The position numbers and the translations under genes were made by a program. This document shows positions 2,499 through 21,154 of a DNA stretch of 64,000 nucleotides, piece by piece. The first letter of the stretch is position 1. Every line of letters starts with the position of its first letter. The notes under the pieces are model-generated. The model was not told the origin of the DNA. It saw nothing but the letters and a program-made list of their open reading frames with translations, and did not search any database. This DNA is from Escherichia phage vB_EcoM-UFV09. The stretch lies in the sequence record MZ291552.2; one strand, written 5' to 3'.

Positions 2499-3501
2499 AG
2501 CTCACCAACTCAATCCAAGCCGGACGAAGTACATCTTGTACCATTTTAACTAATTCCTTTTTAACCAAAGAAGGATTATCCGCTTGAGTTAGAGTAATAC
2601 CTTCACGAGAAGTTTCTTCCAAAATATCTTGAACAGTTAATCCCATCACCTTTCCAAAATCTTTTGGACCAATTTCGCCAATTTTGGAAATAACGTTATT
2701 TACTCGGTTCAATGTAACATAACAAGCTAAAATTCCAACCAATTTATTATCAGCTTCTGACAATTCAACTTTAGCTTTAATAGGCTTATCAGACTTTTTC
2801 TTTTCACTAAATTTAGAGTTCTTGCATTTGATGGCCACACGATTGCGATTAGGCAGCCAAGAAGGATAACAAGGTTTCAATACATATCCTTCAGCAGTAA
2901 ATACTTCGCCTTTTGCTTCGGCATTCCAAACGCATTTATTTGCATCAACTAATCCAGCATGGTCTACTGTAAAATTATAATCTTGGACGACAGAATCTAA
3001 ATCATTTGGCAATTTAATAAGCTCTTCAAATTTACCGCGACCTAAAAGTGGAGCCATTTTAAATTTAAATGTATTACAGAATGATTCCATCATATAATCA
3101 TCGACATAAGTCACATCACCACTTTCTGTAGTGACAATAATGTCAAATACATAAAAATCTTTATCACCATAATCAACATTCTTCTGAATGCCAGGACCAG
3201 CGAATTCGCCAAATACCTGATAAGTCACAACAGCTGAAGTTTCCATAATATCTTGTACTGCTTTAATGGAATCAGCGTAATTCTTTAGAATAATTTCATA
3301 CCCAAAGAAATCTTCAGCAGGAAGAATCGGTCCAGTACGTTTAGCGCAAGTTAATTTATCACGCTCAATAATCAATGAGAAATTTGTGCCGTGAATCTTT
3401 TCACGAGCTACCCATTCGCCGCCAGTCAATCCCAAGCTATAAAGTTTTTCAATAAATTTAGAGTTGTAATGATTTTCAAGACTGCTATACTTTTTAAACA
3501 T
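2497..3501 (-). CDS. rnlB: RNA ligase 2 (Rnl2)
   Basis: 334-aa ORF; sequence recognised as T4 Rnl2; T4 position after gene 24. Confidence 0.93.
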
Positions 3502-3789: not shown

Positions 3790-3991
3790 TTTTCACCTTT
3801 TTATTGATATGTCTTTTTCTATAGACAACTTTTTCTCGAGTTTCAAATTTATTCTTAGCAGTCATAGCTCGAGCCCATAATACAGCCACTTCTTTTGCCT
3901 GTAAGTTCAATTCACGAGCAATTTCAATGAATGACTTTCCAGACTCATGAAGAGTAAACACCACAACCTCAGTTCTCATAATCAATCTCAT
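3776..3991 (-). CDS. 24.3: Small basic protein 24.3, possible helix-turn-helix
   Basis: 71-aa ORF at the T4 24.3 position. Confidence 0.7.
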   Translation of the reverse strand: MRLIMRTEVVVFTLHESGKSFIEIARELNLQAKEVAVLWARAMTAKNKFETREKVVYRKRHINKKVKNGTV

Positions 3992-4080
3992 GTTATTGAG
4001 TTGGTGCCATTATATACATCGTTTTCTGATTGTGTTTTGTGTGCTTTCAAAATGAAGAAAGGGGCCGAAGCCCCTTACGA

Positions 4081-5499
4081 TTATGGATAGGTATAGATGA
4101 TACCAGTTTCTAAAGCTGTTTTGTGAATGATGTATCCATTACGCGATTCTTGGACATCAACTTCTGGATAGTCTTTCATCATCTTCTGAAGCGTATAACG
4201 ATGCAAGTAGTACTTACTATCTGGGTCGTCAGTTTTCCAATCTTTACCTTCTTCAGTCATTTTTTGGATTTCATCCATAACCCACCAACCGCACCAGATA
4301 TAAGCTGAAGTACGGTGCGGAAGAGGATGAACATAAGGCAATTCACCTTCTGGTTCTGGAGCAACTTTATCAGTCACTTGAACTTGACCTGTTGTTTTAA
4401 CTGTTTTGCTATCATAATCAGTTGCTGTAACGACAGCAGTAACTTCAATAGTTTGACTTCCAACAGATGAGGTATCGACAGTATATACGTTAGTTGACCC
4501 TTCTACAGGAGAAGAATCTTTCTTCCACGAGTAAGTAATTTGTGCTTCTTCTGGAGCATCCGTAACATTAGCAGTAAATGTAGCCGAAGCATCTTGCTGA
4601 ACGTTAATAGAAGGAGGAGTCAATGTAACCTGTGGATTCATTGTCTTCTTATTAACTGTCAATGATACTTCATTAGAAGTAACTTCCTTTTCATTGTAAT
4701 TTTCTGCTGTTACTTGGGCTACGCATTTAATTCTTTTTACTCCACTTGTAGTTGGAGTATAGCTAAATGTAGAGTTAGTTTCTCCACCAACTTGTGAATC
4801 ATCTACATACCATTTATATGTAGCAGACGCTCCATCAGGTTGAGAAGCTAAGGCAGCAGTAAATTGAACTGGGGTTCCAATTACTCCAGCTGAAGGACTA
4901 GCAGGAGTTACTGCCAATGTAGTTGTCTGTGTCTTTTTATTAACAGTCAGTGATACTTCATTCGAAGTAACGGTTTTTTCATCATAATTTGTCGCGGTTA
5001 CTTGAGCTACACACTTGATTTTTTTAACTCCGCTTGCGGCAGGAGTGTAATTGAATGTAGCAGAAGTCGCTTCGTCTACAGGAGAACTGTCAACGTACCA
5101 TTGATACGTAGCAGATGCACCTGATGGCTGCGAAGCTAAAGCAGCGGTAAATTTAACAGCTGTTCCAATTACTCCTGCTGGAGGACTATTGGGAGTTACG
5201 GCTAAGGTAGTCGTCTGAGTTTTGTTTTTGACTGTGATAGTTGTAGTAGCTTCTGCTGTTTCAGCTTCAGATTCTGGAACTGTATTTGTTGCAACAACTT
5301 TAATAGTCTTTTAACCAGCAGGACCTTTTAATACATAATCAAAAGTTGCTTCAGACCCATCTTGTGGAGCATTATCTACACTCCAAGCATAAGTAATAGT
5401 TCCACCTCCAGTTTCACCACTGGGTGCAGCAGTAAACTGCTTGGTTTCATCAATAACTCCTGACGGTGCTTTAGGAGTTATATCAACTGTAAAAGCCAT
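4081..5499 (-). pseudogene. hoc: hoc (outer capsid decoration protein) interrupted by a single in-frame TAA at 5311..5313; reading frame otherwise open for 471 codons with four Ig-like domains plus capsid-binding C-terminus
   Basis: Track ORFs 5311..5499 and 4081..4917 are in one frame; I translated 4918..5310 by hand and found no other stop; stop falls where I recall T4 Hoc having Gln (GPAG-Q-KTIKV). Confidence 0.8.
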
Positions 5500-5508
5500 A
5501 AGTTATCC

Positions 5509-6189
5509 TTATTTTAATGTTACGAAAGAAGAATTGCGTGTTTCACGAATTAAAACTGATCCGTCGCGATTAATGTAATAAATTAAGCTAAACAAAGTTT
5601 GGTGTGCTGACGCGTGTTCAAAACTAGTTGGATGAGATTTCCAATCAGGAGTTTCAGCGATCCATTGATAAATCCACCAAGGAACCGTACAGAATCCTGG
5701 ATTTTTCCCCAATAATTGAAGATTCGGGCTAAAGTTTTCCGGAAGAGTAAATACAGACGGCTTTTCAGATTCAATAATCTCAGCTACAGCTTGTTCAAAC
5801 TTTTCTTCAACAAAAGGAGTGTCTTCAATCAAAACATCAGTATTTTCAGGAATTTTATCCGTTTCTACAACTTCAATTTTAATATCAGATTTAACTGGAG
5901 AATCAATCAGAAGCGCTGCTTCTGGATTAACTTCTTCATCGTCATATTTTAATCCCTCTGCAGCATCAGCAGCATCAATTAAGTCTTTAATAGATAACCC
6001 ATCAGTCTCTGGCATAGGTTCACTAGCGAGCTTCTGGAGGGCTTCTTCAATATCAACAACGATATTATCAAAAGATTTATTCTTTTTGACCTTTATACCA
6101 AACTGTTCAGCATATTCAGCTAATTTAGCTTTAGCTTCTTTATTATCATCAAGAGCCTTCAGCTCTGCAATATAATCTTTATCTATCAT
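5509..6189 (-). CDS. inh: Inh, inhibitor of prohead protease
   Basis: 226-aa acidic ORF immediately upstream of hoc, as in T4. Confidence 0.8.
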   Translation of the reverse strand: MIDKDYIAELKALDDNKEAKAKLAEYAEQFGIKVKKNKSFDNIVVDIEEALQKLASEPMPETDGLSIKDLIDAADAAEGLKYDDEEVNPEAALLIDSPVKSDIKIEVVETDKIPENTDVLIEDTPFVEEKFEQAVAEIIESEKPSVFTLPENFSPNLQLLGKNPGFCTVPWWIYQWIAETPDWKSHPTSFEHASAHQTLFSLIYYINRDGSVLIRETRNSSFVTLK

Positions 6190-6202
6190 AATATTTCCTC
6201 AG

Positions 6203-6210
6203 TATAAATA
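6203..6210 (+). promoter_or_regulatory. T4-type late promoter upstream of uvsW
   Basis: Exact TATAAATA about 30 nt upstream of the uvsW ATG. Confidence 0.5.
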
Positions 6211-6239
6211 TAGATATATTTATTACATGGTATTTAGAC

Positions 6240-7751
6240 ATGACTGACATTAAAGTACATTTTTATGATTTTAGTCACGTGAGAATTGATTGTGAAGAAA
6301 GTACATTTCATGAACTCCGTGATTTCTTTTCGTTTGAGGCCGATGGATATAGATTTAACCCTCGCTTCAGATATGGCAACTGGGATGGACGAATCCGTCT
6401 TTTAGATTATAATCGCCTTCTTCCATTCGGCTTAGTCGGGCAAATTAAAAAGTTCTGTGATAACTTTGGCTATAAAGCCTGGATTGACCCACAAATTAAC
6501 GAAAAAGAAGAATTATCAAGAAAAGATTTTGATGAATGGCTTTCTAAATTAGAAATCTATTCAGGAAATAAAAGAATTGAACCACACTGGTATCAAAAAG
6601 ATGCAGTGTTCGAAGGATTAGTTAATCGTCGTAGAATTCTTAATCTTCCAACATCTGCAGGTAAATCTTTAATTCAAGCTTTGCTTGCACGTTATTATTT
6701 GGAAAATTATGAAGGTAAAATTCTTATCATTGTTCCAACAACTGCTCTGACAACTCAGATGGCTGATGACTTTGTTGACTATCGTTTATTCAGTCATGCA
6801 ATGATAAAGAAAATTGGTGGCGGAGCATCAAAAGATGATAAATATAAAAATGATGCACCAGTCGTTGTTGGTACATGGCAAACTGTAGTAAAACAACCAA
6901 AAGAATGGTTCTCACAATTTGGAATGATGATGAATGATGAATGTCATCTTGCTACAGGAAAAAGTATTTCATCTATCATATCAGGTTTAAATAACTGCAT
7001 GTTCAAATTTGGTCTATCAGGTTCATTACGTGATGGCAAAGCCAATATCATGCAGTATGTTGGAATGTTCGGTGAAATATTTAAGCCAGTAACGACTTCT
7101 AAATTAATGGAAGATGGGCAAGTAACTGAGCTAAAAATTAATAGTATTTTTCTTCGTTATCCTGATGAGTTCACTACTAAATTAAAGGGAAAAACTTACC
7201 AAGAAGAAATAAAAATTATTACTGGGCTCAGTAAAAGAAATAAATGGATCGCTAAATTAGCTATTAAGCTTGCGCAAAAAGATGAAAACGCTTTTGTCAT
7301 GTTTAAACATGTATCGCACGGTAAAGCTATTTTCGATTTAATTAAAAATGAATACGATAAAGTTTATTACGTATCAGGGGAAGTTGATACCGAAACCCGC
7401 AATATAATGAAAACCTTAGCTGAAAATGGTAAAGGAATAATTATAGTAGCTAGTTATGGTGTATTTTCTACTGGTATTTCAGTTAAAAATCTGCATCACG
7501 TTGTTTTAGCGCACGGTGTTAAATCAAAAATCATTGTATTACAAACAATCGGTCGTGTATTACGTAAGCATGGTTCTAAAACAATCGCAACTGTCTGGGA
7601 CCTCATAGATGATTGTGGTGTTAAGCCAAAATCTGCTAATACGAAAAAGAAATATGTTCATTTGAACTATCTTTTAAAACACGGCATTGATCGTATTCAG
7701 CGCTACGCAGATGAAAAATTCAATTACGTAATGAAAACAGTTAATTTATAA
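6240..7751 (+). CDS. uvsW: UvsW, SF2 DNA helicase for recombination and repair
   Basis: 503-aa ORF with Walker A (PTSAGKS) and DExH-like (MNDECH) motifs; recognised as T4 UvsW. Confidence 0.95.
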   Translation: MTDIKVHFYDFSHVRIDCEESTFHELRDFFSFEADGYRFNPRFRYGNWDGRIRLLDYNRLLPFGLVGQIKKFCDNFGYKAWIDPQINEKEELSRKDFDEWLSKLEIYSGNKRIEPHWYQKDAVFEGLVNRRRILNLPTSAGKSLIQALLARYYLENYEGKILIIVPTTALTTQMADDFVDYRLFSHAMIKKIGGGASKDDKYKNDAPVVVGTWQTVVKQPKEWFSQFGMMMNDECHLATGKSISSIISGLNNCMFKFGLSGSLRDGKANIMQYVGMFGEIFKPVTTSKLMEDGQVTELKINSIFLRYPDEFTTKLKGKTYQEEIKIITGLSKRNKWIAKLAIKLAQKDENAFVMFKHVSHGKAIFDLIKNEYDKVYYVSGEVDTETRNIMKTLAENGKGIIIVASYGVFSTGISVKNLHHVVLAHGVKSKIIVLQTIGRVLRKHGSKTIATVWDLIDDCGVKPKSANTKKKYVHLNYLLKHGIDRIQRYADEKFNYVMKTVNL

Positions 7752-7776
7752 GGGCTTCGGCCCTTTGGAGAAAAAG

Positions 7777-8010
7777 ATGTTACTAGAATTTAAACAATTT
7801 CTTTATGAAGCTTCTATTGATGAATTTATGGGTAAAATTGCCTCTTGTCAAACATTAGAAGGTTTAGAAGAACTTGAAGCTTATTATAAGAAAAGAGTCA
7901 AAGAAACTGAATTAAAAGATACTGATGACATCTCTGTGAGAGATGCTTTGGCAGGAAAAAGAGCTGAATTAGAAGATTCAGACGATGATGAAGTAGAAGA
8001 AAGTTTTTAA
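7777..8010 (+). CDS. uvsW.1: UvsW.1 small acidic protein
   Basis: ATG with GGAG Shine-Dalgarno; track ORF 7765..8010 begins at an upstream non-ATG codon. Confidence 0.8.
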   Translation: MLLEFKQFLYEASIDEFMGKIASCQTLEGLEELEAYYKKRVKETELKDTDDISVRDALAGKRAELEDSDDDEVEESF

Positions 8011-8065
8011 ATAAAAAAGGCCCAACCAAAAAAGGAAGGGCCAAAACTATAGACTAAAGGTCACA

Positions 8066-8233
8066 CTATAGCAAAAGTTGTGTTTCATTTAATTGTTCTT
8101 CCGAACTTTCTGAAACTGGTAGTTCTTTAATGTAATTATAGCAAGGCCCAGGATGTACAGGACCTTTGTCTGTTTCAACAACCAATGCAGAATCGATTGG
8201 AGTTTTACAGACAACACAAATCTTATCTGACAT
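8066..8233 (-). CDS. uvsY.-2: Small Cys-rich protein (CxxC...C, possible zinc ribbon)
   Basis: Start re-assigned to internal ATG with AAGGAG Shine-Dalgarno; TATAAATA on minus strand at about 8259..8266. Confidence 0.6.
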   Translation of the reverse strand: MSDKICVVCKTPIDSALVVETDKGPVHPGPCYNYIKELPVSESSEEQLNETQLLL

Positions 8234-16378: not shown

Positions 16379-16383
16379 CAATG

Positions 16384-16409
16384 GGGACCGAAAGGTCCCC
16401 ATATTTTTA
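16384..16409. terminator. Bidirectional hairpin (GAAA tetraloop) between gene 54 and the minus-strand early cluster
   Basis: ggggacc-gaaa-ggtcccc followed by atatttttattt. Confidence 0.5.
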
Positions 16410-16697
16410 TTTACGGAATGAAATAAAAGCAGCAACTGAAGCAACAGAGGTTTCTTCAATATAAACCTCAATTTTTACCGGAGCTTCTGACTCAAATTTA
16501 CCTGTTACTACACCTTGGAAAATACTTTCAGTCTGTTCTGGCTTTGAAAAATTTTCAGAAGGAAAAATTCCAAACTTTTTATCGGTTCCGAAAATTTTAA
16601 TAAATTCATCATAAACTGCTTCATTGAAAGCGTTATCAGCGGGAATAACGCCTTCAACGACGAGTTCTTGACCTAAAAAGCGCAAAGAAGATTTCAT
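16407..16697 (-). CDS. Hypothetical early protein (96 aa)
   Basis: ORF with GAGGA Shine-Dalgarno directly downstream of an early promoter. Confidence 0.7.
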   Translation of the reverse strand: MKSSLRFLGQELVVEGVIPADNAFNEAVYDEFIKIFGTDKKFGIFPSENFSKPEQTESIFQGVVTGKFESEAPVKIEVYIEETSVASVAAFISFRK

Positions 16698-16704
16698 TTT
16701 GTGT

Positions 16705-16758
16705 TCCTCATGTTATGTCAGTAAGATTATTATAACACAACACGAGGGACTTGTAAAC
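16705..16758 (-). promoter_or_regulatory. Early promoter plus leader cassette, copy 1
   Basis: Minus strand GTTTAC-N18-TATAAT then leader with GAGGA; identical over 54 bp to 32013..32066. Confidence 0.6.
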
Positions 16759-18815
16759 TACATTTTGAACTTTTTAGACATTCCGTTGATGTTAACCAAA
16801 GAAGCTAAGATTTGAGAAACTTCGTTTTCCTCTTCTTTTGATTCTTCTACAAGGAATTGATTAAATCCAGCCATTGGACGAACTTCACCAGTTTCCATCA
16901 GATGGTCGCCATCATATACTGATTCTTCTAATTGTTCAGAAGGAGGAACGATTGTACCTTCGATTAGATACTTGTTATAAGCAGTTTCTTTCATCATGTA
17001 CGTACTTACTTTATTAATCTTCAGTAAAATTCCACGCGGCAAAATAACTTCAGCTTCGGATGGAAATCCTGATAAATGACCTGGAACGATAACTTTAACT
17101 CGTTCAGCTCCTTTAATTACCATACCTACATTAGTTTCAGCGTCTTCATTCGCATATGTAGAATGACTACCCATATGCATTAAATCTTCAGCATCAACTG
17201 AACCTTCTCCTTCACCAGAAAATACTGCTCCGGAATCATCTAAGGCCATATAATTTTTACCATATTCACCGAAGATATTTGGCTTGAGTGAAGTAGATAC
17301 AAAGTTCTTGAAATAGAACATTTTATTTTCTATATTATGACGTAAAGTTTTAAAGGTAACTTCTTGCCCACGATAAAGAGTAGTTCCTGGAGGAAGAACT
17401 GAACCTTTAGAAAATGCAGAATCCAGCGTCTCAATATGTTTAATAGCTCGTTCCATATATTCTTCACGGGTAGAATCAGGTTTACCTAGAAGGAACGAGT
17501 TCATTTCAACATATGAATCTGCGCAATAATCTTCAATTACATCAGACTCAGCCTGAGTTAATCCTTTTGGAGTTACTTCAGTGCTTGCATATTCATATGC
17601 CTGAGCAGCAGATTCATCAATTAATTTATAAATTCCATTCATTACAAATTGAATAATAGCTGTCTTTTCATCTGGTGTAGCTTTAGAACCTTTAACTAAA
17701 TCATTGACAATTTTCTTAATAACATCAAAGCTATTAGAAATATTAATGTCAGCAAGATCGCTTAAAATTTTATCAGTTTTATAATCAAAGAATTCTTTAT
17801 TCTTTAAATATTCTTGAGAACCTTGATATGTTATATCGCTCTGCAGCTTGATAGATGGATCGCGTAAACGTGCATGGGCCAATGCAATATGATTTCGGAA
17901 GCTTTCGAGTTCATAATCACTAGATTTAAAACGAGAAGCACTTCTCATACCACCGATAGCTCCTTTGCTAAAGTTTGAACCAACCTGAATAACGCCAGAG
18001 TTCATTGGTCCTTCTGCTTTATATACCGGAACTTTAGATTCAAACTCTTGATATTTCTTAGCAGCGAAGCTATCACCCTGAAGTGAAGCATCAACAGTAG
18101 AATATTGAGCTTGTGCTGCTAATCGACGACTAATTTTAGTTTTCTGAATAACAGCTTGATCCGTGCGCTTATCATTTTCTAAAGCAATAGAAGCAGCAAC
18201 AGCAACAGCTTTAGGAACAGCATTACCTGTTTTAACGTCTACATAAACATCACCAACCTTTGATTCAACTTTTGTGAATAACTCGGTTGAAATAGGAGGT
18301 ACACCTGGAATGTCTTCTAAATTGGCATTTTTACGGTAAACCATAATATATGCGTACTTTTTATCATAATCCCAGATTTCCTTTAAAAGAACATATCGAC
18401 CTGCTCCTTTAGTACGTACTAAACGGTCAGCAATAACTTGCATTTGCCGAGCAGCGCCATTTGTTTTACTTTTTAGTACGCGGAATAAGCATGCATCAAT
18501 TTTATACTGTTTCATTGTTTGAAGAGCAGTATCAAAAACAGCATTAATGACGCCAATTGGATTTCCACCCAAGTTTTTAAGCTTAACTAATGATAGTTTC
18601 TCATTAACGCCTATCATTACGATATGCATCATTTTGTCGCCTGGCTTAACGTTTTTATTCGTATCACCGCCAGAGGTGTATGTACAAAATCTAAATCCAG
18701 GAAGCACGCTTTCTTCACCTGCTTGAATAGCAAAAATTTGAGGTATTTTATGCTTAGGATTTAAGTTAACAACCGGCGCCGAAGCGCCGTCAAATAATTC
18801 TGTAATAAGTTCCAT
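16758..18815 (-). CDS. Alt-like ADP-ribosyltransferase paralogue (685 aa)
   Basis: Paralogous to the adjacent 697-aa ORF (shared MELITELFD N-terminus); YRGQ, FVSTS and EAEVILPRG motifs resemble an ART R-S-E triad. Confidence 0.8.
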   Translation of the reverse strand: MELITELFDGASAPVVNLNPKHKIPQIFAIQAGEESVLPGFRFCTYTSGGDTNKNVKPGDKMMHIVMIGVNEKLSLVKLKNLGGNPIGVINAVFDTALQTMKQYKIDACLFRVLKSKTNGAARQMQVIADRLVRTKGAGRYVLLKEIWDYDKKYAYIMVYRKNANLEDIPGVPPISTELFTKVESKVGDVYVDVKTGNAVPKAVAVAASIALENDKRTDQAVIQKTKISRRLAAQAQYSTVDASLQGDSFAAKKYQEFESKVPVYKAEGPMNSGVIQVGSNFSKGAIGGMRSASRFKSSDYELESFRNHIALAHARLRDPSIKLQSDITYQGSQEYLKNKEFFDYKTDKILSDLADINISNSFDVIKKIVNDLVKGSKATPDEKTAIIQFVMNGIYKLIDESAAQAYEYASTEVTPKGLTQAESDVIEDYCADSYVEMNSFLLGKPDSTREEYMERAIKHIETLDSAFSKGSVLPPGTTLYRGQEVTFKTLRHNIENKMFYFKNFVSTSLKPNIFGEYGKNYMALDDSGAVFSGEGEGSVDAEDLMHMGSHSTYANEDAETNVGMVIKGAERVKVIVPGHLSGFPSEAEVILPRGILLKINKVSTYMMKETAYNKYLIEGTIVPPSEQLEESVYDGDHLMETGEVRPMAGFNQFLVEESKEEENEVSQILASLVNINGMSKKFKM

Positions 18816-18818
18816 GAT

Positions 18819-20912
18819 TTATCCTTGAACGAACTTGTAAGGCATGTTTGTAATATCTATGCAAGACGCAATAATTCCAAGAGATGATTCTACTTTCTGT
18901 TTAATATTTGATGAAACAAATGATGCAAAGTCAACTCTGTCTTCTATTTCAATATCACCTGTCATTGCAACCAATTCACCAGTTTCCATTAAATGGTCTC
19001 CATCATAGATTACCGATTCGGTGAGCTCTTCCGTGGTCATAACTTCAGCTTGAATGAGTTTTGTATTATTAGATGTTGTTCCGTCATTATTAGAAGCATC
19101 GATTATTTTATTAACTTTGACCATCAATCCACGCGGTAGAATAACTTCAGCTTCTGTTGCTATTCCGAGACTTCCTGGATATACAACATTAACTTTATGA
19201 GCTCCATCAATTGCCCATCCTATTTGAACTTTAACATATTCAGGATTTTCTTTATACGCTCTTATTTCGTTTGGATTAATAGTTATTCCTTCTTCATTTT
19301 TATCAACTGTTAATTCATTGCGAGCTTCTGGTTCTAAAAGACCAATACCAGCATGTGTGATTCCAAAACGTCCAAAAATGATAGGAGTTAAAGAAGTAGA
19401 TACAAAATTTCTGAAGTAGAACACTTTATTTTTAACTAACGCTTCATATATAGGAGCAGTCATACTTTGAGCACGATAAACTGTAATGCCTTCTGGTATA
19501 CGGTCACCATTTTCAAAAGCTGAATCTAAGTTATTTATAGCAGATTCAATTTCTTTTTCACTCATTACATCGTATCGTTCTGGATTGTAACGACCTAAAA
19601 GAAGATTATTGATGTCAGTATATCCTGAACCGCAATATTCTCTAATGCCACGCTTTTGTGATGGAGTATATTTAGAACCATCGCGGGCAATAGTAATATC
19701 AATCATTGGACCAGCACCAATTCCAGAAAAACTGTAAATCATTCGTTTGAGGAATTTAGTTTTTGCTGCGTTCCAGGAATTTTTAGTTATTTCTTCCCAG
19801 ACTTCATCTGGTTGTCCTTTACGATTTTTATTATGATTAGCAAGCCATTTATCTTTATAATCTTCAAAGAATTGATTTACAGCTGCTGCGTATTTCTCTA
19901 AACATTTTATTGAAGTAGTTGGTTCATTTTTAATTGCATTAAAAATTACTTCTTTAATTTTTTCTGAAACTTCACCGACTTGACTCATTGGAAAGAATTT
20001 ATAATCATAGTGAAGTTCATCTGCCGTTCCTTCAGCAATAATTTTTGCTGCCTTTGTTTTAGAAGCTAATGAATTAATTCCAATTTTCATTTCTTCTGCT
20101 TCGGGAATTAAAGGTGCAGTAGCTGGTTTATTAAAATTAGCTGCTGTAGATTCATACTTCTGGAATAATTCACTTTCAAATCTAGAAGATTCCAATGACT
20201 GACTTTGTGCAATTGCTCTACGGGAAATTTTAACTTTAACGATTACAGCTTGGTCAGAACGTTTATCATTTTCTTGCGCAATAGATGCTGCAATTGCTTC
20301 ATTTTTAGTTACTTGAGCTCCAGTATCTTTATTGATATAAACATCACCGACCTTCGATTCAACTTTAGTAAAGAGTTCAGTGCTAATTTCTGGAACTCCT
20401 GGAATGTCTTCTAATGATACATTTTTGCGATGTATAAGAATATATGCATACTTTTTATCGTAATCCCAGAGTTCCTTAAGAAGGACGTATCTGCCACCTG
20501 AACGACTACGGATAAGTCTATCAGCAATAACTTGAATTTGTCGAGCTTGGCCAGCAGTTTTAGACTTAAGAATACGAAGCATGCAGGCATCAATTTTATA
20601 TTGACGCATCGTTTGCATTGCAACAGTAAAAACTGAATTGATATAATTAATTGGGCTTGGACCAAGACCTTTTAATTTAGCAATTGAGCCTTTAGCAGTT
20701 AATGTAAAAGGAACAATATGCATCATTTTATCGCCCATCTTTAAATCGCGATTAGTATCACCTCCAGATGTATAGGTACATAAACGAAAGCCTGGTTGTT
20801 CAATTGCATCATCAACATGAACTGAAAAAATTTGTGGTATTTTCTTCTTTGGATTTAAGTTTGTAATCGGAAGAGTAGTATCTTCGTCAAATAATTCTGT
20901 AATAAGTTCCAT
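18819..20912 (-). CDS. alt: Alt ADP-ribosyltransferase (virion-packaged, modifies host RNA polymerase)
   Basis: 697-aa ORF with YRAQ, FVSTS, EAEVILPRG motifs; late promoter upstream; T4 alt position between 54 and 30. Confidence 0.8.
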   Translation of the reverse strand: MELITELFDEDTTLPITNLNPKKKIPQIFSVHVDDAIEQPGFRLCTYTSGGDTNRDLKMGDKMMHIVPFTLTAKGSIAKLKGLGPSPINYINSVFTVAMQTMRQYKIDACMLRILKSKTAGQARQIQVIADRLIRSRSGGRYVLLKELWDYDKKYAYILIHRKNVSLEDIPGVPEISTELFTKVESKVGDVYINKDTGAQVTKNEAIAASIAQENDKRSDQAVIVKVKISRRAIAQSQSLESSRFESELFQKYESTAANFNKPATAPLIPEAEEMKIGINSLASKTKAAKIIAEGTADELHYDYKFFPMSQVGEVSEKIKEVIFNAIKNEPTTSIKCLEKYAAAVNQFFEDYKDKWLANHNKNRKGQPDEVWEEITKNSWNAAKTKFLKRMIYSFSGIGAGPMIDITIARDGSKYTPSQKRGIREYCGSGYTDINNLLLGRYNPERYDVMSEKEIESAINNLDSAFENGDRIPEGITVYRAQSMTAPIYEALVKNKVFYFRNFVSTSLTPIIFGRFGITHAGIGLLEPEARNELTVDKNEEGITINPNEIRAYKENPEYVKVQIGWAIDGAHKVNVVYPGSLGIATEAEVILPRGLMVKVNKIIDASNNDGTTSNNTKLIQAEVMTTEELTESVIYDGDHLMETGELVAMTGDIEIEDRVDFASFVSSNIKQKVESSLGIIASCIDITNMPYKFVQG

Positions 20913-20935
20913 GTTATCCTCTCTAGTGTTTATTC

Positions 20936-20943
20936 TATTTATA
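20936..20943 (-). promoter_or_regulatory. Late promoter for alt
   Basis: Minus strand TATAAATA about 21 nt upstream of the alt ATG, followed by GAGAGGA Shine-Dalgarno. Confidence 0.55.
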
Positions 20944-20968
20944 AAATTAAAGGCCCGAAGGCCTTTAA

Positions 20969-21154
20969 TTAATAGAGAGCTAAAAGAGTACGATATACTT
21001 CAAACTTTGGACCTTTTTCATATGGATCAAATCTTTCCGTGAATTCATCATATGCTAGTTTATCTGGGAATTCAAGAATAACCTGCGATACCGCAGTGGA
21101 AACATCTCCACCTTCTTTTTGAGCCACGACAATTGTTTCTAAGTAAGCTTTCAT
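20969..21154 (-). CDS. Hypothetical protein (61 aa) between gene 30 and alt
   Basis: ATG overlaps the gene 30 stop (ATGA coupling). Confidence 0.55.
   Translation of the reverse strand: MKAYLETIVVAQKEGGDVSTAVSQVILEFPDKLAYDEFTERFDPYEKGPKFEVYRTLLALY

Follow-up and report, generated by a model that had tools for sequence, protein, structure and literature searches.

Two tandem Alt-type ADP-ribosyltransferase genes in Escherichia phage vB_EcoM-UFV09 and the predicted role of the second copy

Alt is the textbook case of an enzyme that is carried in the phage head and injected to reprogram the host, and nearly all knowledge of it comes from phage T4, which has lost a second copy of the gene. Present in approximately 40 copies in the prohead core (PMC5694885, PMC9026906), T4 Alt is cleaved by the prohead protease gp21 at ITE-6 and LTE-619 to a product of 68.2 kDa (PMC5694885), and it modifies Arg265 of the RNA polymerase alpha subunit, along with a broad range of other targets (PMC2988021). 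Duplications of alt in T4-like phages were noted by Nolan et al. 2006 (PMC1524935), and the Dhakavirus phages IME08 and JS10 have two genes, altA and altB, in tandem between alt.1 and alt.-3. Here we analyze a tandem pair at the same position in a 64,000-nt stretch of Escherichia phage vB_EcoM-UFV09 (record MZ291552.2), hereafter the window, and refer to the upstream gene as alt1 (697 aa) and to the downstream one as alt2 (685 aa).

The wider relatives of these proteins are the R-S-E ADP-ribosyltransferases (ARTs), such as Vis, C3cer/C3bot, CDTa, iota Ia and VIP2 (PF03496), with which the Alt proteins share motifs and, as predicted, the catalytic fold. The Alts differ from the C3-like and binary-toxin enzymes (14-25% identity) in having an N-terminal extension of about 415 residues made up of an N domain and a helical domain, a long acidic insert after the S-T-S motif and a cleavable C-terminal tail, and in being delivered by the phage head instead of secreted. 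T4 ModA and ModB belong to the same R-S-E clade and are likewise phage-encoded modifiers of host proteins (PMC5512222), but they are early proteins of about 200 aa that remain unpackaged and have no N, middle or C-tail module.

Two intact Alt-family genes

The original prediction of two adjacent Alt-family ORFs (open reading frames) holds exactly as regards their lengths and positions (Table 1). The two products align end to end with 42% identity (E=1e-164), and a chance origin is not credible for ORFs of about 690 codons in DNA of 35% GC. Both genes are intact, full-length members of the Alt family, judging from profile searches: the PF03496 scores stand against a curated cut-off of 23.4 bits, phrog_802 is matched end to end (residues 1-685 of Alt2 and 1-696 of Alt1), and PF26846 (Tevenvirinae_ADPRT) is present on close homologues in precomputed annotation. 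NCBIfam yielded no family match for either protein. The helical middle domain also gave weak CesA-like matches, with E=0.036 in Pfam and E=0.1-0.3 in PDB, which were taken as coiled-coil noise.

In full-length alignments to T4 Alt (NP_049811; BLASTP), the 697-aa protein is 71% identical and the 685-aa protein 41%. The upstream copy is thus the T4 Alt orthologue by sequence and by genome position, with residues 1-246 and the C-terminal 80 or so residues being approximately 95-100% identical to T4 Alt and the middle and catalytic regions diverged. Alt2 resembles T4 Alt in its architecture, its R / S-T-S / E-x-E set, both gp21 motifs and its motif-based late transcription, and differs from it in a middle domain that is unrelated (9-18% identity), in the insert after S-T-S and in an aromatic-proline turn that T4 Alt lacks.

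The motifs that had been read as an R-S-E triad were located in both proteins: YRGQ at 481-484 of Alt2 and YRAQ at 479-482 of Alt1, FVSTS at 505-509 and 503-507, respectively, and EAEVILPRG at 587-595 in both. Far from being lost from the 685-aa protein upon proper alignment, R482, S507, S509, E587, E589 and the downstream ILPRG do not vary among the 24 sequences of a family alignment spanning both lineages; the corresponding predicted residues of Alt1 are R480, S505-T-S507 and E587-A-E589. A profile of this family alignment matches C3cer and BECa, placing the arginine on their catalytic Arg (VYRG/TYR) and E587-A-E589 on the Q-Y-E of C3cer and the E-Y-E of BECa, and E-x-E is the arginine-specific type. 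Where this profile is aligned to C3cer, the S-T-S region is gapped, and S-T-S is equated with the C3 motif on the strength of the matching fold and of its conservation within the family. A sequence search of solved structures with Alt2 alone found nothing; the structural model predicts a C3/Vis-like ART fold. In T4 Alt, a glutamate mutant of the E-x-E motif, published as E577A, abolishes ADP-ribosylation (PMC11404850). The E-x-E glutamates of the RefSeq T4 Alt are E574 and E576, and the discrepancy with the published number is probably an offset of construct numbering. Judged from substitution rates, Alt2 is under strong purifying selection: its ratio of nonsynonymous to synonymous substitutions (dN/dS) is 0.045 against T6 (dS 0.21) and 0.13 against L006, a diverged relative, and that of its ART domain is 0.04 against T6.

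Both proteins also carry what appear to be the gp21 cleavage signals of T4 Alt. MELITE is identical in the two, with E6 invariant among the 24 sequences, and the C-terminal L-x-E motif is LTE632 in Alt1 and LEE631 in Alt2, both aligned with LTE-619 of T4; E631 and the YDGDxxxExGE block just past this site are invariant in the same alignment. In the Alt2 model, both sites lie in segments with a predicted local distance difference test (pLDDT) score below 50 (e.g., residues 630-648), which are probably flexible. The mass computed for residues 7-619 of T4 Alt, 68.2 kDa, reproduces the published value, and cleavage at ITE6 and at the C-terminal site is predicted to give mature proteins of about 70 kDa for Alt1 and 69 kDa for Alt2.

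As to transcription, the late promoter that had been reported ahead of the upstream copy and the early promoter reported to overlap the stop of the downstream copy were both recovered as motif matches. The former is followed by a GAGG Shine-Dalgarno sequence (20918-20921) and the alt1 ATG (20910-20912), and its position is kept in T6, UFV-AREG1, L006, T4 and the L003 hybrid described below. The latter, whose first G is the G of the alt2 TAG, has the best promoter-like score in the region (11/12 matches plus an extended -10, TGT-TATAAT) and is kept positionally in T6, UFV-AREG1, L006 and T4. The short spacer between the genes offers no promoter fit, the AAGGA Shine-Dalgarno sequence of alt2 lies within the 3' end of alt1, and the junction CAAGGATAAATCATGG is kept in T6, UFV-AREG1, L006 and T4. 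We therefore predict that alt1 and alt2 are transcribed late from one shared promoter, alt2 having none of its own. A second exact TATAAATA within alt1 (19532-19539, minus strand), which precedes the start of alt2 by about 720 nt, was considered as an internal late promoter and rejected as probably a chance match: it is present in the near-identical relatives T6 and UFV-AREG1 but absent from L006 and T4, and the motif is expected by chance about nine times in the window. Upstream of the late promoter, a candidate terminator hairpin likely insulates the alt genes from upstream early and middle transcripts; a terminator upstream of alt is reportedly conserved in five of six T4-like genomes (PMC1524935).

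Table 1. Annotated and predicted features of the alt locus (window positions).
Feature	Position	Strand	Remarks
alt.1	20969-21154	-	61 aa; upstream neighbor; same position as T4 alt.1
Terminator candidate	20945-20970	-	GC-rich hairpin and U-rich tract; RNA fold -15.9 kcal/mol, z=-3.7
T4-type late promoter, TATAAATA	20936-20943	-	23 nt before alt1 ATG; motif match
alt1	18819-20912	-	697 aa; T4 Alt orthologue; PF03496 126.9 bits
alt1-alt2 spacer	18816-18818	-	3 nt, ATC (TAA-ATC-ATG); no promoter fit
alt2	16758-18815	-	685 aa; second Alt paralogue, B lineage; PF03496 73.5 bits
alt2 N domain	18102-18815	-	Residues 1-238; includes MELITE propeptide; predicted ITE6 gp21 site at 18798-18806
alt2 middle domain	17571-18101	-	Residues 239-415; all-helical and most diverged; model helices 250-414
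alt2 ART domain	16941-17570	-	Residues 416-625; F584-P585 in ARTT loop
alt2 codon R482	17370-17372	-	Predicted catalytic
alt2 codon S507	17295-17297	-	Predicted catalytic
alt2 codon S509	17289-17291	-	Predicted catalytic
alt2 codon E587	17055-17057	-	Predicted catalytic
alt2 codon E589	17049-17051	-	Predicted catalytic
alt2 acidic C-terminal tail	16761-16922	-	Residues 632-685; predicted propeptide after L629-E-E631 gp21 motif
Early-type sigma-70 promoter, GTTTACA-N17-TGTTATAAT	16758-16729	-	Precedes alt.-3; motif match
alt.-3	16407-16697	-	96 aa; DUF5498; downstream neighbor with own early promoter
Bidirectional hairpin terminator	16381-16402	both	9-bp stem, 6 GC pairs; between alt.-3 and gene 54; scored on both strands

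Lineage of alt2, its loss in T4 and recombination between the copies

The gene that is intact in the window survives in T4 as a deleted pseudogene, according to the DNA alignment: T4 alt.-1 (NP_049810) and alt.-2 (NP_049809) correspond to the 5' 355 nt or so and the last 20 nt or so of alt2, at 96% identity. Two lesions separate them from the intact gene, namely the loss of 1 nt from an A-run (window 18656), which shifts the reading frame, and a 1,699-bp deletion (window 16778-18476) bounded by the 9-bp direct repeat CTAAAAAGT, so that the loss appears to have been repeat-mediated; the T4 counterpart spans positions 3036-3466 of the T4 sequence used here (L002). The families that PHROG bases on alt.-1 and alt.-2 (phrog_23015 and phrog_15247) match Alt2 better than Alt1. 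T6 "alt.-2", which shares the locus and lineage, is 98% identical to Alt2. In the T4 record, alt.-1/alt.-2 are put down to an old duplication of the initial portion of alt, and in that of T6, the full gene is called an "insertion". The repeat-flanked deletion and the existence of an AltB orthologue indicate instead that the intact gene is ancestral and that both descriptions run the other way round.

Trees of the middle domain, the ART domain and the C-terminal tail place Alt2 with T6 "alt.-2", L006 and IME08 AltB, and Alt1 with T4 Alt and IME08 AltA; Alt2 and IME08 AltB are 43-45% identical in the middle domain, 57-59% in the ART domain and 64-66% in the C-tail. By these trees, the B lineage, shared with Dhakavirus AltB, predates the split between the genera. 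The N domains, compared over window 18102-18815 and 20199-20912, L005 (IME08) 3989-8206 and L006 2242-6423, behave differently, since here the copies group by genome and not by paralogue, in Dhakavirus as well, with 65-67% identity within Tequatrovirus and within IME08 and 41-47% between the genera. Because the N domains sort by genome whereas the other domains sort by A or B lineage, the pattern fits an old duplication after which gene conversion acted on the N-terminal, presumed packaging module alone, a sign of its concerted evolution.

Recombination between the copies is also suggested by four database proteins (P0003, P0004, P0005 and P0007) that are chimeras of an Alt1 N-terminal part and an Alt2 C-terminal part with different breakpoints. 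A hybrid alt lies directly after alt.1 in two metagenomic contigs, L003 (4001-6055) and L007 (4001-6061); in the former, alt.1 and alt.-3 flank no other alt gene, and the latter contig stops at the hybrid gene. Each hybrid has a single clean crossover, at codons ~182-186 and ~220-223, within 8-11 nt of shared sequence. Exact shared sequence between the paralogues reaches at most 28 nt, at the start codon, and at most 17 nt elsewhere. We considered mis-assembly and disfavor it, given that the junctions share only 8-11 nt and that two samples have different breakpoints; it is more likely that the hybrids are real products of unequal crossovers that deleted one gene length than that they are short-read artefacts.

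Alt1 seems to have a mosaic history of its own. Its ART domain (19038-19665) is 95% identical to that of Dhakavirus IME08 AltA (L005; dS 0.44) and 65-66% identical to that of T4 Alt, and its N domain is 100% identical to that of T4 and 46% to that of IME08 (dS >2). The closeness of the ART domain to IME08 AltA, with the N domain being so distant, indicates that the catalytic module of Alt1 was exchanged between genera. Alt1 proteins fall into two identity bands, one of 316 records that match the 697-aa allele at 90% identity or more, and a T4 type of 212 records at 60-80%.

Possible roles of the second enzyme

The original prediction described the N-termini of the two proteins as near-identical, which is overstated, as only the first nine residues are identical and the N domain as a whole (residues 1-238) is 68% identical. 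The two proteins are 42-45% identical in the C-terminal tail, 35-37% in the ART domain, 16% in the insert between S-T-S and the next strand, and 14-20% in the helical middle domain. The ADP-ribosylating turn-turn (ARTT) loop differs as well: every B-lineage sequence carries an aromatic residue and Pro at positions -3 and -2 relative to the first Glu (F-P-S-E-A-E or Y-P-E-E-A-E), where the Alt1/T4 lineage has I-A-T, P-S-N or Q-S-Q, and the F-P-S-E-A-E of Alt2 fits the Y-P-G-Q-Y-E pattern of C3cer. The ARTT turn contributes to target recognition in C3-type enzymes. Since divergence is greatest in the ARTT loop, the middle domain and the post-S-T-S insert, the comparison points to different targets for Alt1 and Alt2, without amounting to proof. 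The proposal of a packaged Alt2 effector that acts on other targets than Alt1 agrees with the conserved gp21 motifs, the predicted late co-transcription, the purifying selection and the divergence of the recognition regions from those of Alt1.

We consider it probable, as a whole, that the locus is a late two-gene operon encoding two anciently duplicated Alt-type mono-ADP-ribosyltransferases, both of which are packaged and injected and which have distinct targets. Under this explanation, alt1 and alt2 would be expressed late in infection from one mRNA, and the shared N-terminal module and its six-residue propeptide would take both proteins into the prohead core, where gp21 would trim them at ITE6 and at the L-x-E before the acidic tail to mature enzymes of ~69-70 kDa. 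In the next infection, both would be ejected with the DNA and would use NAD+ to modify arginines of host proteins. Alt1 would act as T4 Alt does, on Arg265 of the RNA polymerase alpha subunit and on other proteins, and Alt2 would modify a different set of host proteins, as its middle domain, post-S-T-S insert and ARTT loop suggest. A more specific proposal, which we put forward tentatively, is that Alt2, and with it the AltB lineage, may serve as another arginine ART that is packaged beforehand, injected and directed at targets unlike those of Alt, possibly host defence or toxin proteins by analogy with MazF, on which T4 Alt acts.

Several points weigh against this explanation. The promoters and gp21 cleavage sites are predicted from motif matches, and the structural model was built from a shallow alignment of 24 sequences. 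The argument for different targets rests on divergence in regions that set specificity in other ARTs, and T4 Alt is itself promiscuous, so that their targets may overlap. Since T4 thrives in its absence and alt itself is dispensable, any role of Alt2 is accessory or depends on the host. Our literature search found no report on the virion presence, activity or targets of Alt2; what it returned on the second copy were genomic mentions of alt duplications (PMC1524935) and database annotations, with no functional or virion data. Phage fD1 carries both genes (g200 and g201) and has a virion proteome, the main text on which does not name Gp200 or Gp201.

Among the alternatives, the one that fares best, although we regard it as unlikely, is that Alt2 is a redundant dosage copy, packaged and active on essentially the same targets as Alt1, that raises or buffers the injected ART activity. 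The two proteins do share their architecture, the arginine-type E-x-E motif and their operon, and the target range of T4 Alt is broad (PMC2988021). Pure redundancy, however, is seldom retained for so long as it would have been here, with lineages distinct since before Tequatrovirus and Dhakavirus split and each under purifying selection; the extent of divergence in the middle domains and ARTT loops also speaks against it, as does the fact that the N domains were homogenized between the copies and the effector domains were not.

Less probable still is that Alt2 remains unpackaged and works late in the producing cell, on host or phage proteins. Its motif-based late promoter and the lack of direct virion evidence would suit such an enzyme, but Alt2 keeps the MELITE propeptide, the N domain of a packaged Alt, and the L-x-E site with the acidic tail, and the occurrence of Alt1-N/Alt2-C hybrids as the sole alt gene suggests that the N modules are interchangeable. 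We give even less credence to the idea that Alt2 spares protein arginines and instead attaches ADP-ribose, or NAD-capped RNA in the manner of ModB, to an unusual acceptor, for example nucleic acid; the precedents are that T4 ModB, of the same R-S-E clade, RNAylates proteins and that ARTs acting on nucleic acids are known. Finally, that Alt2 is a pseudoenzyme, inactive in catalysis and serving to build the head core, as might be imagined from the description of Alt as a core protein besides an enzyme (PMC11404850), can be rejected in view of the invariance of all its catalytic residues and the strong constraint on its ART domain.

Neighboring genes, distribution and implications

The window belongs to a Tequatrovirus, and a 5-kb query covering the locus matched 543 phage records in all, being 100% identical to vB_EcoM-UFV10 and UFV11 and 99% identical to UFV-AREG1. 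The order on the minus strand is gene 30 (DNA ligase), alt.1, alt1, alt2 and alt.-3, followed by the convergent gene 54. alt.1 matches the recent Pfam family PF24647 (Phage_blade, "Phage blade protein"; E=7e-28). alt.-3 probably follows an expression schedule different from that of the alt genes because it has a strong early-type promoter motif of its own; mutants of T4 alt.-3 with a C-terminal extension escape the CmdTAC defence (PMC11618068).

Full-length Alt2 orthologues of at least 90% identity occur in approximately 400 phage records, including T6, RB14 and RB33 (tblastn), and Alt1-type proteins of at least 60% identity in approximately 530. In RefSeq, UFV-AREG1 has alt_1 and alt_2, both named "Alt-like RNA polymerase ADP-ribosyltransferase", and the second gene of T6 is annotated "apparent insertion in alt.-2; also similar to alt" (AXN58232). 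The tandem pair is therefore a known, widespread and already annotated feature, which had escaped the original prediction, as had the orthology of the upstream copy with T4 Alt and the pseudogene in T4. Its annotation is inconsistent, with one or both genes labeled "hypothetical protein" or "protein of unknown function" in UFV10, bov9_1, RB33, T6 and fD1, and the full-length gene of RB14 labeled "alt.-2 hypothetical protein".

The genomic observation is thus not new. An intact and strongly constrained Alt2 is kept in about three quarters of the Tequatrovirus-type records sampled, so that the usual T-even infection probably starts with two injected ARTs. The targets of Alt2 could reveal a new point of host takeover or counter-defence, and the question is tractable, as T6 has both genes. 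If the tentative proposal on the AltB lineage is right, the shared N module, kept alike by gene conversion, would be a generic head-delivery cassette for swapped ART "warheads", and the model phage T4, having deleted Alt2, would give too small a picture of the effectors that most T-even phages inject.

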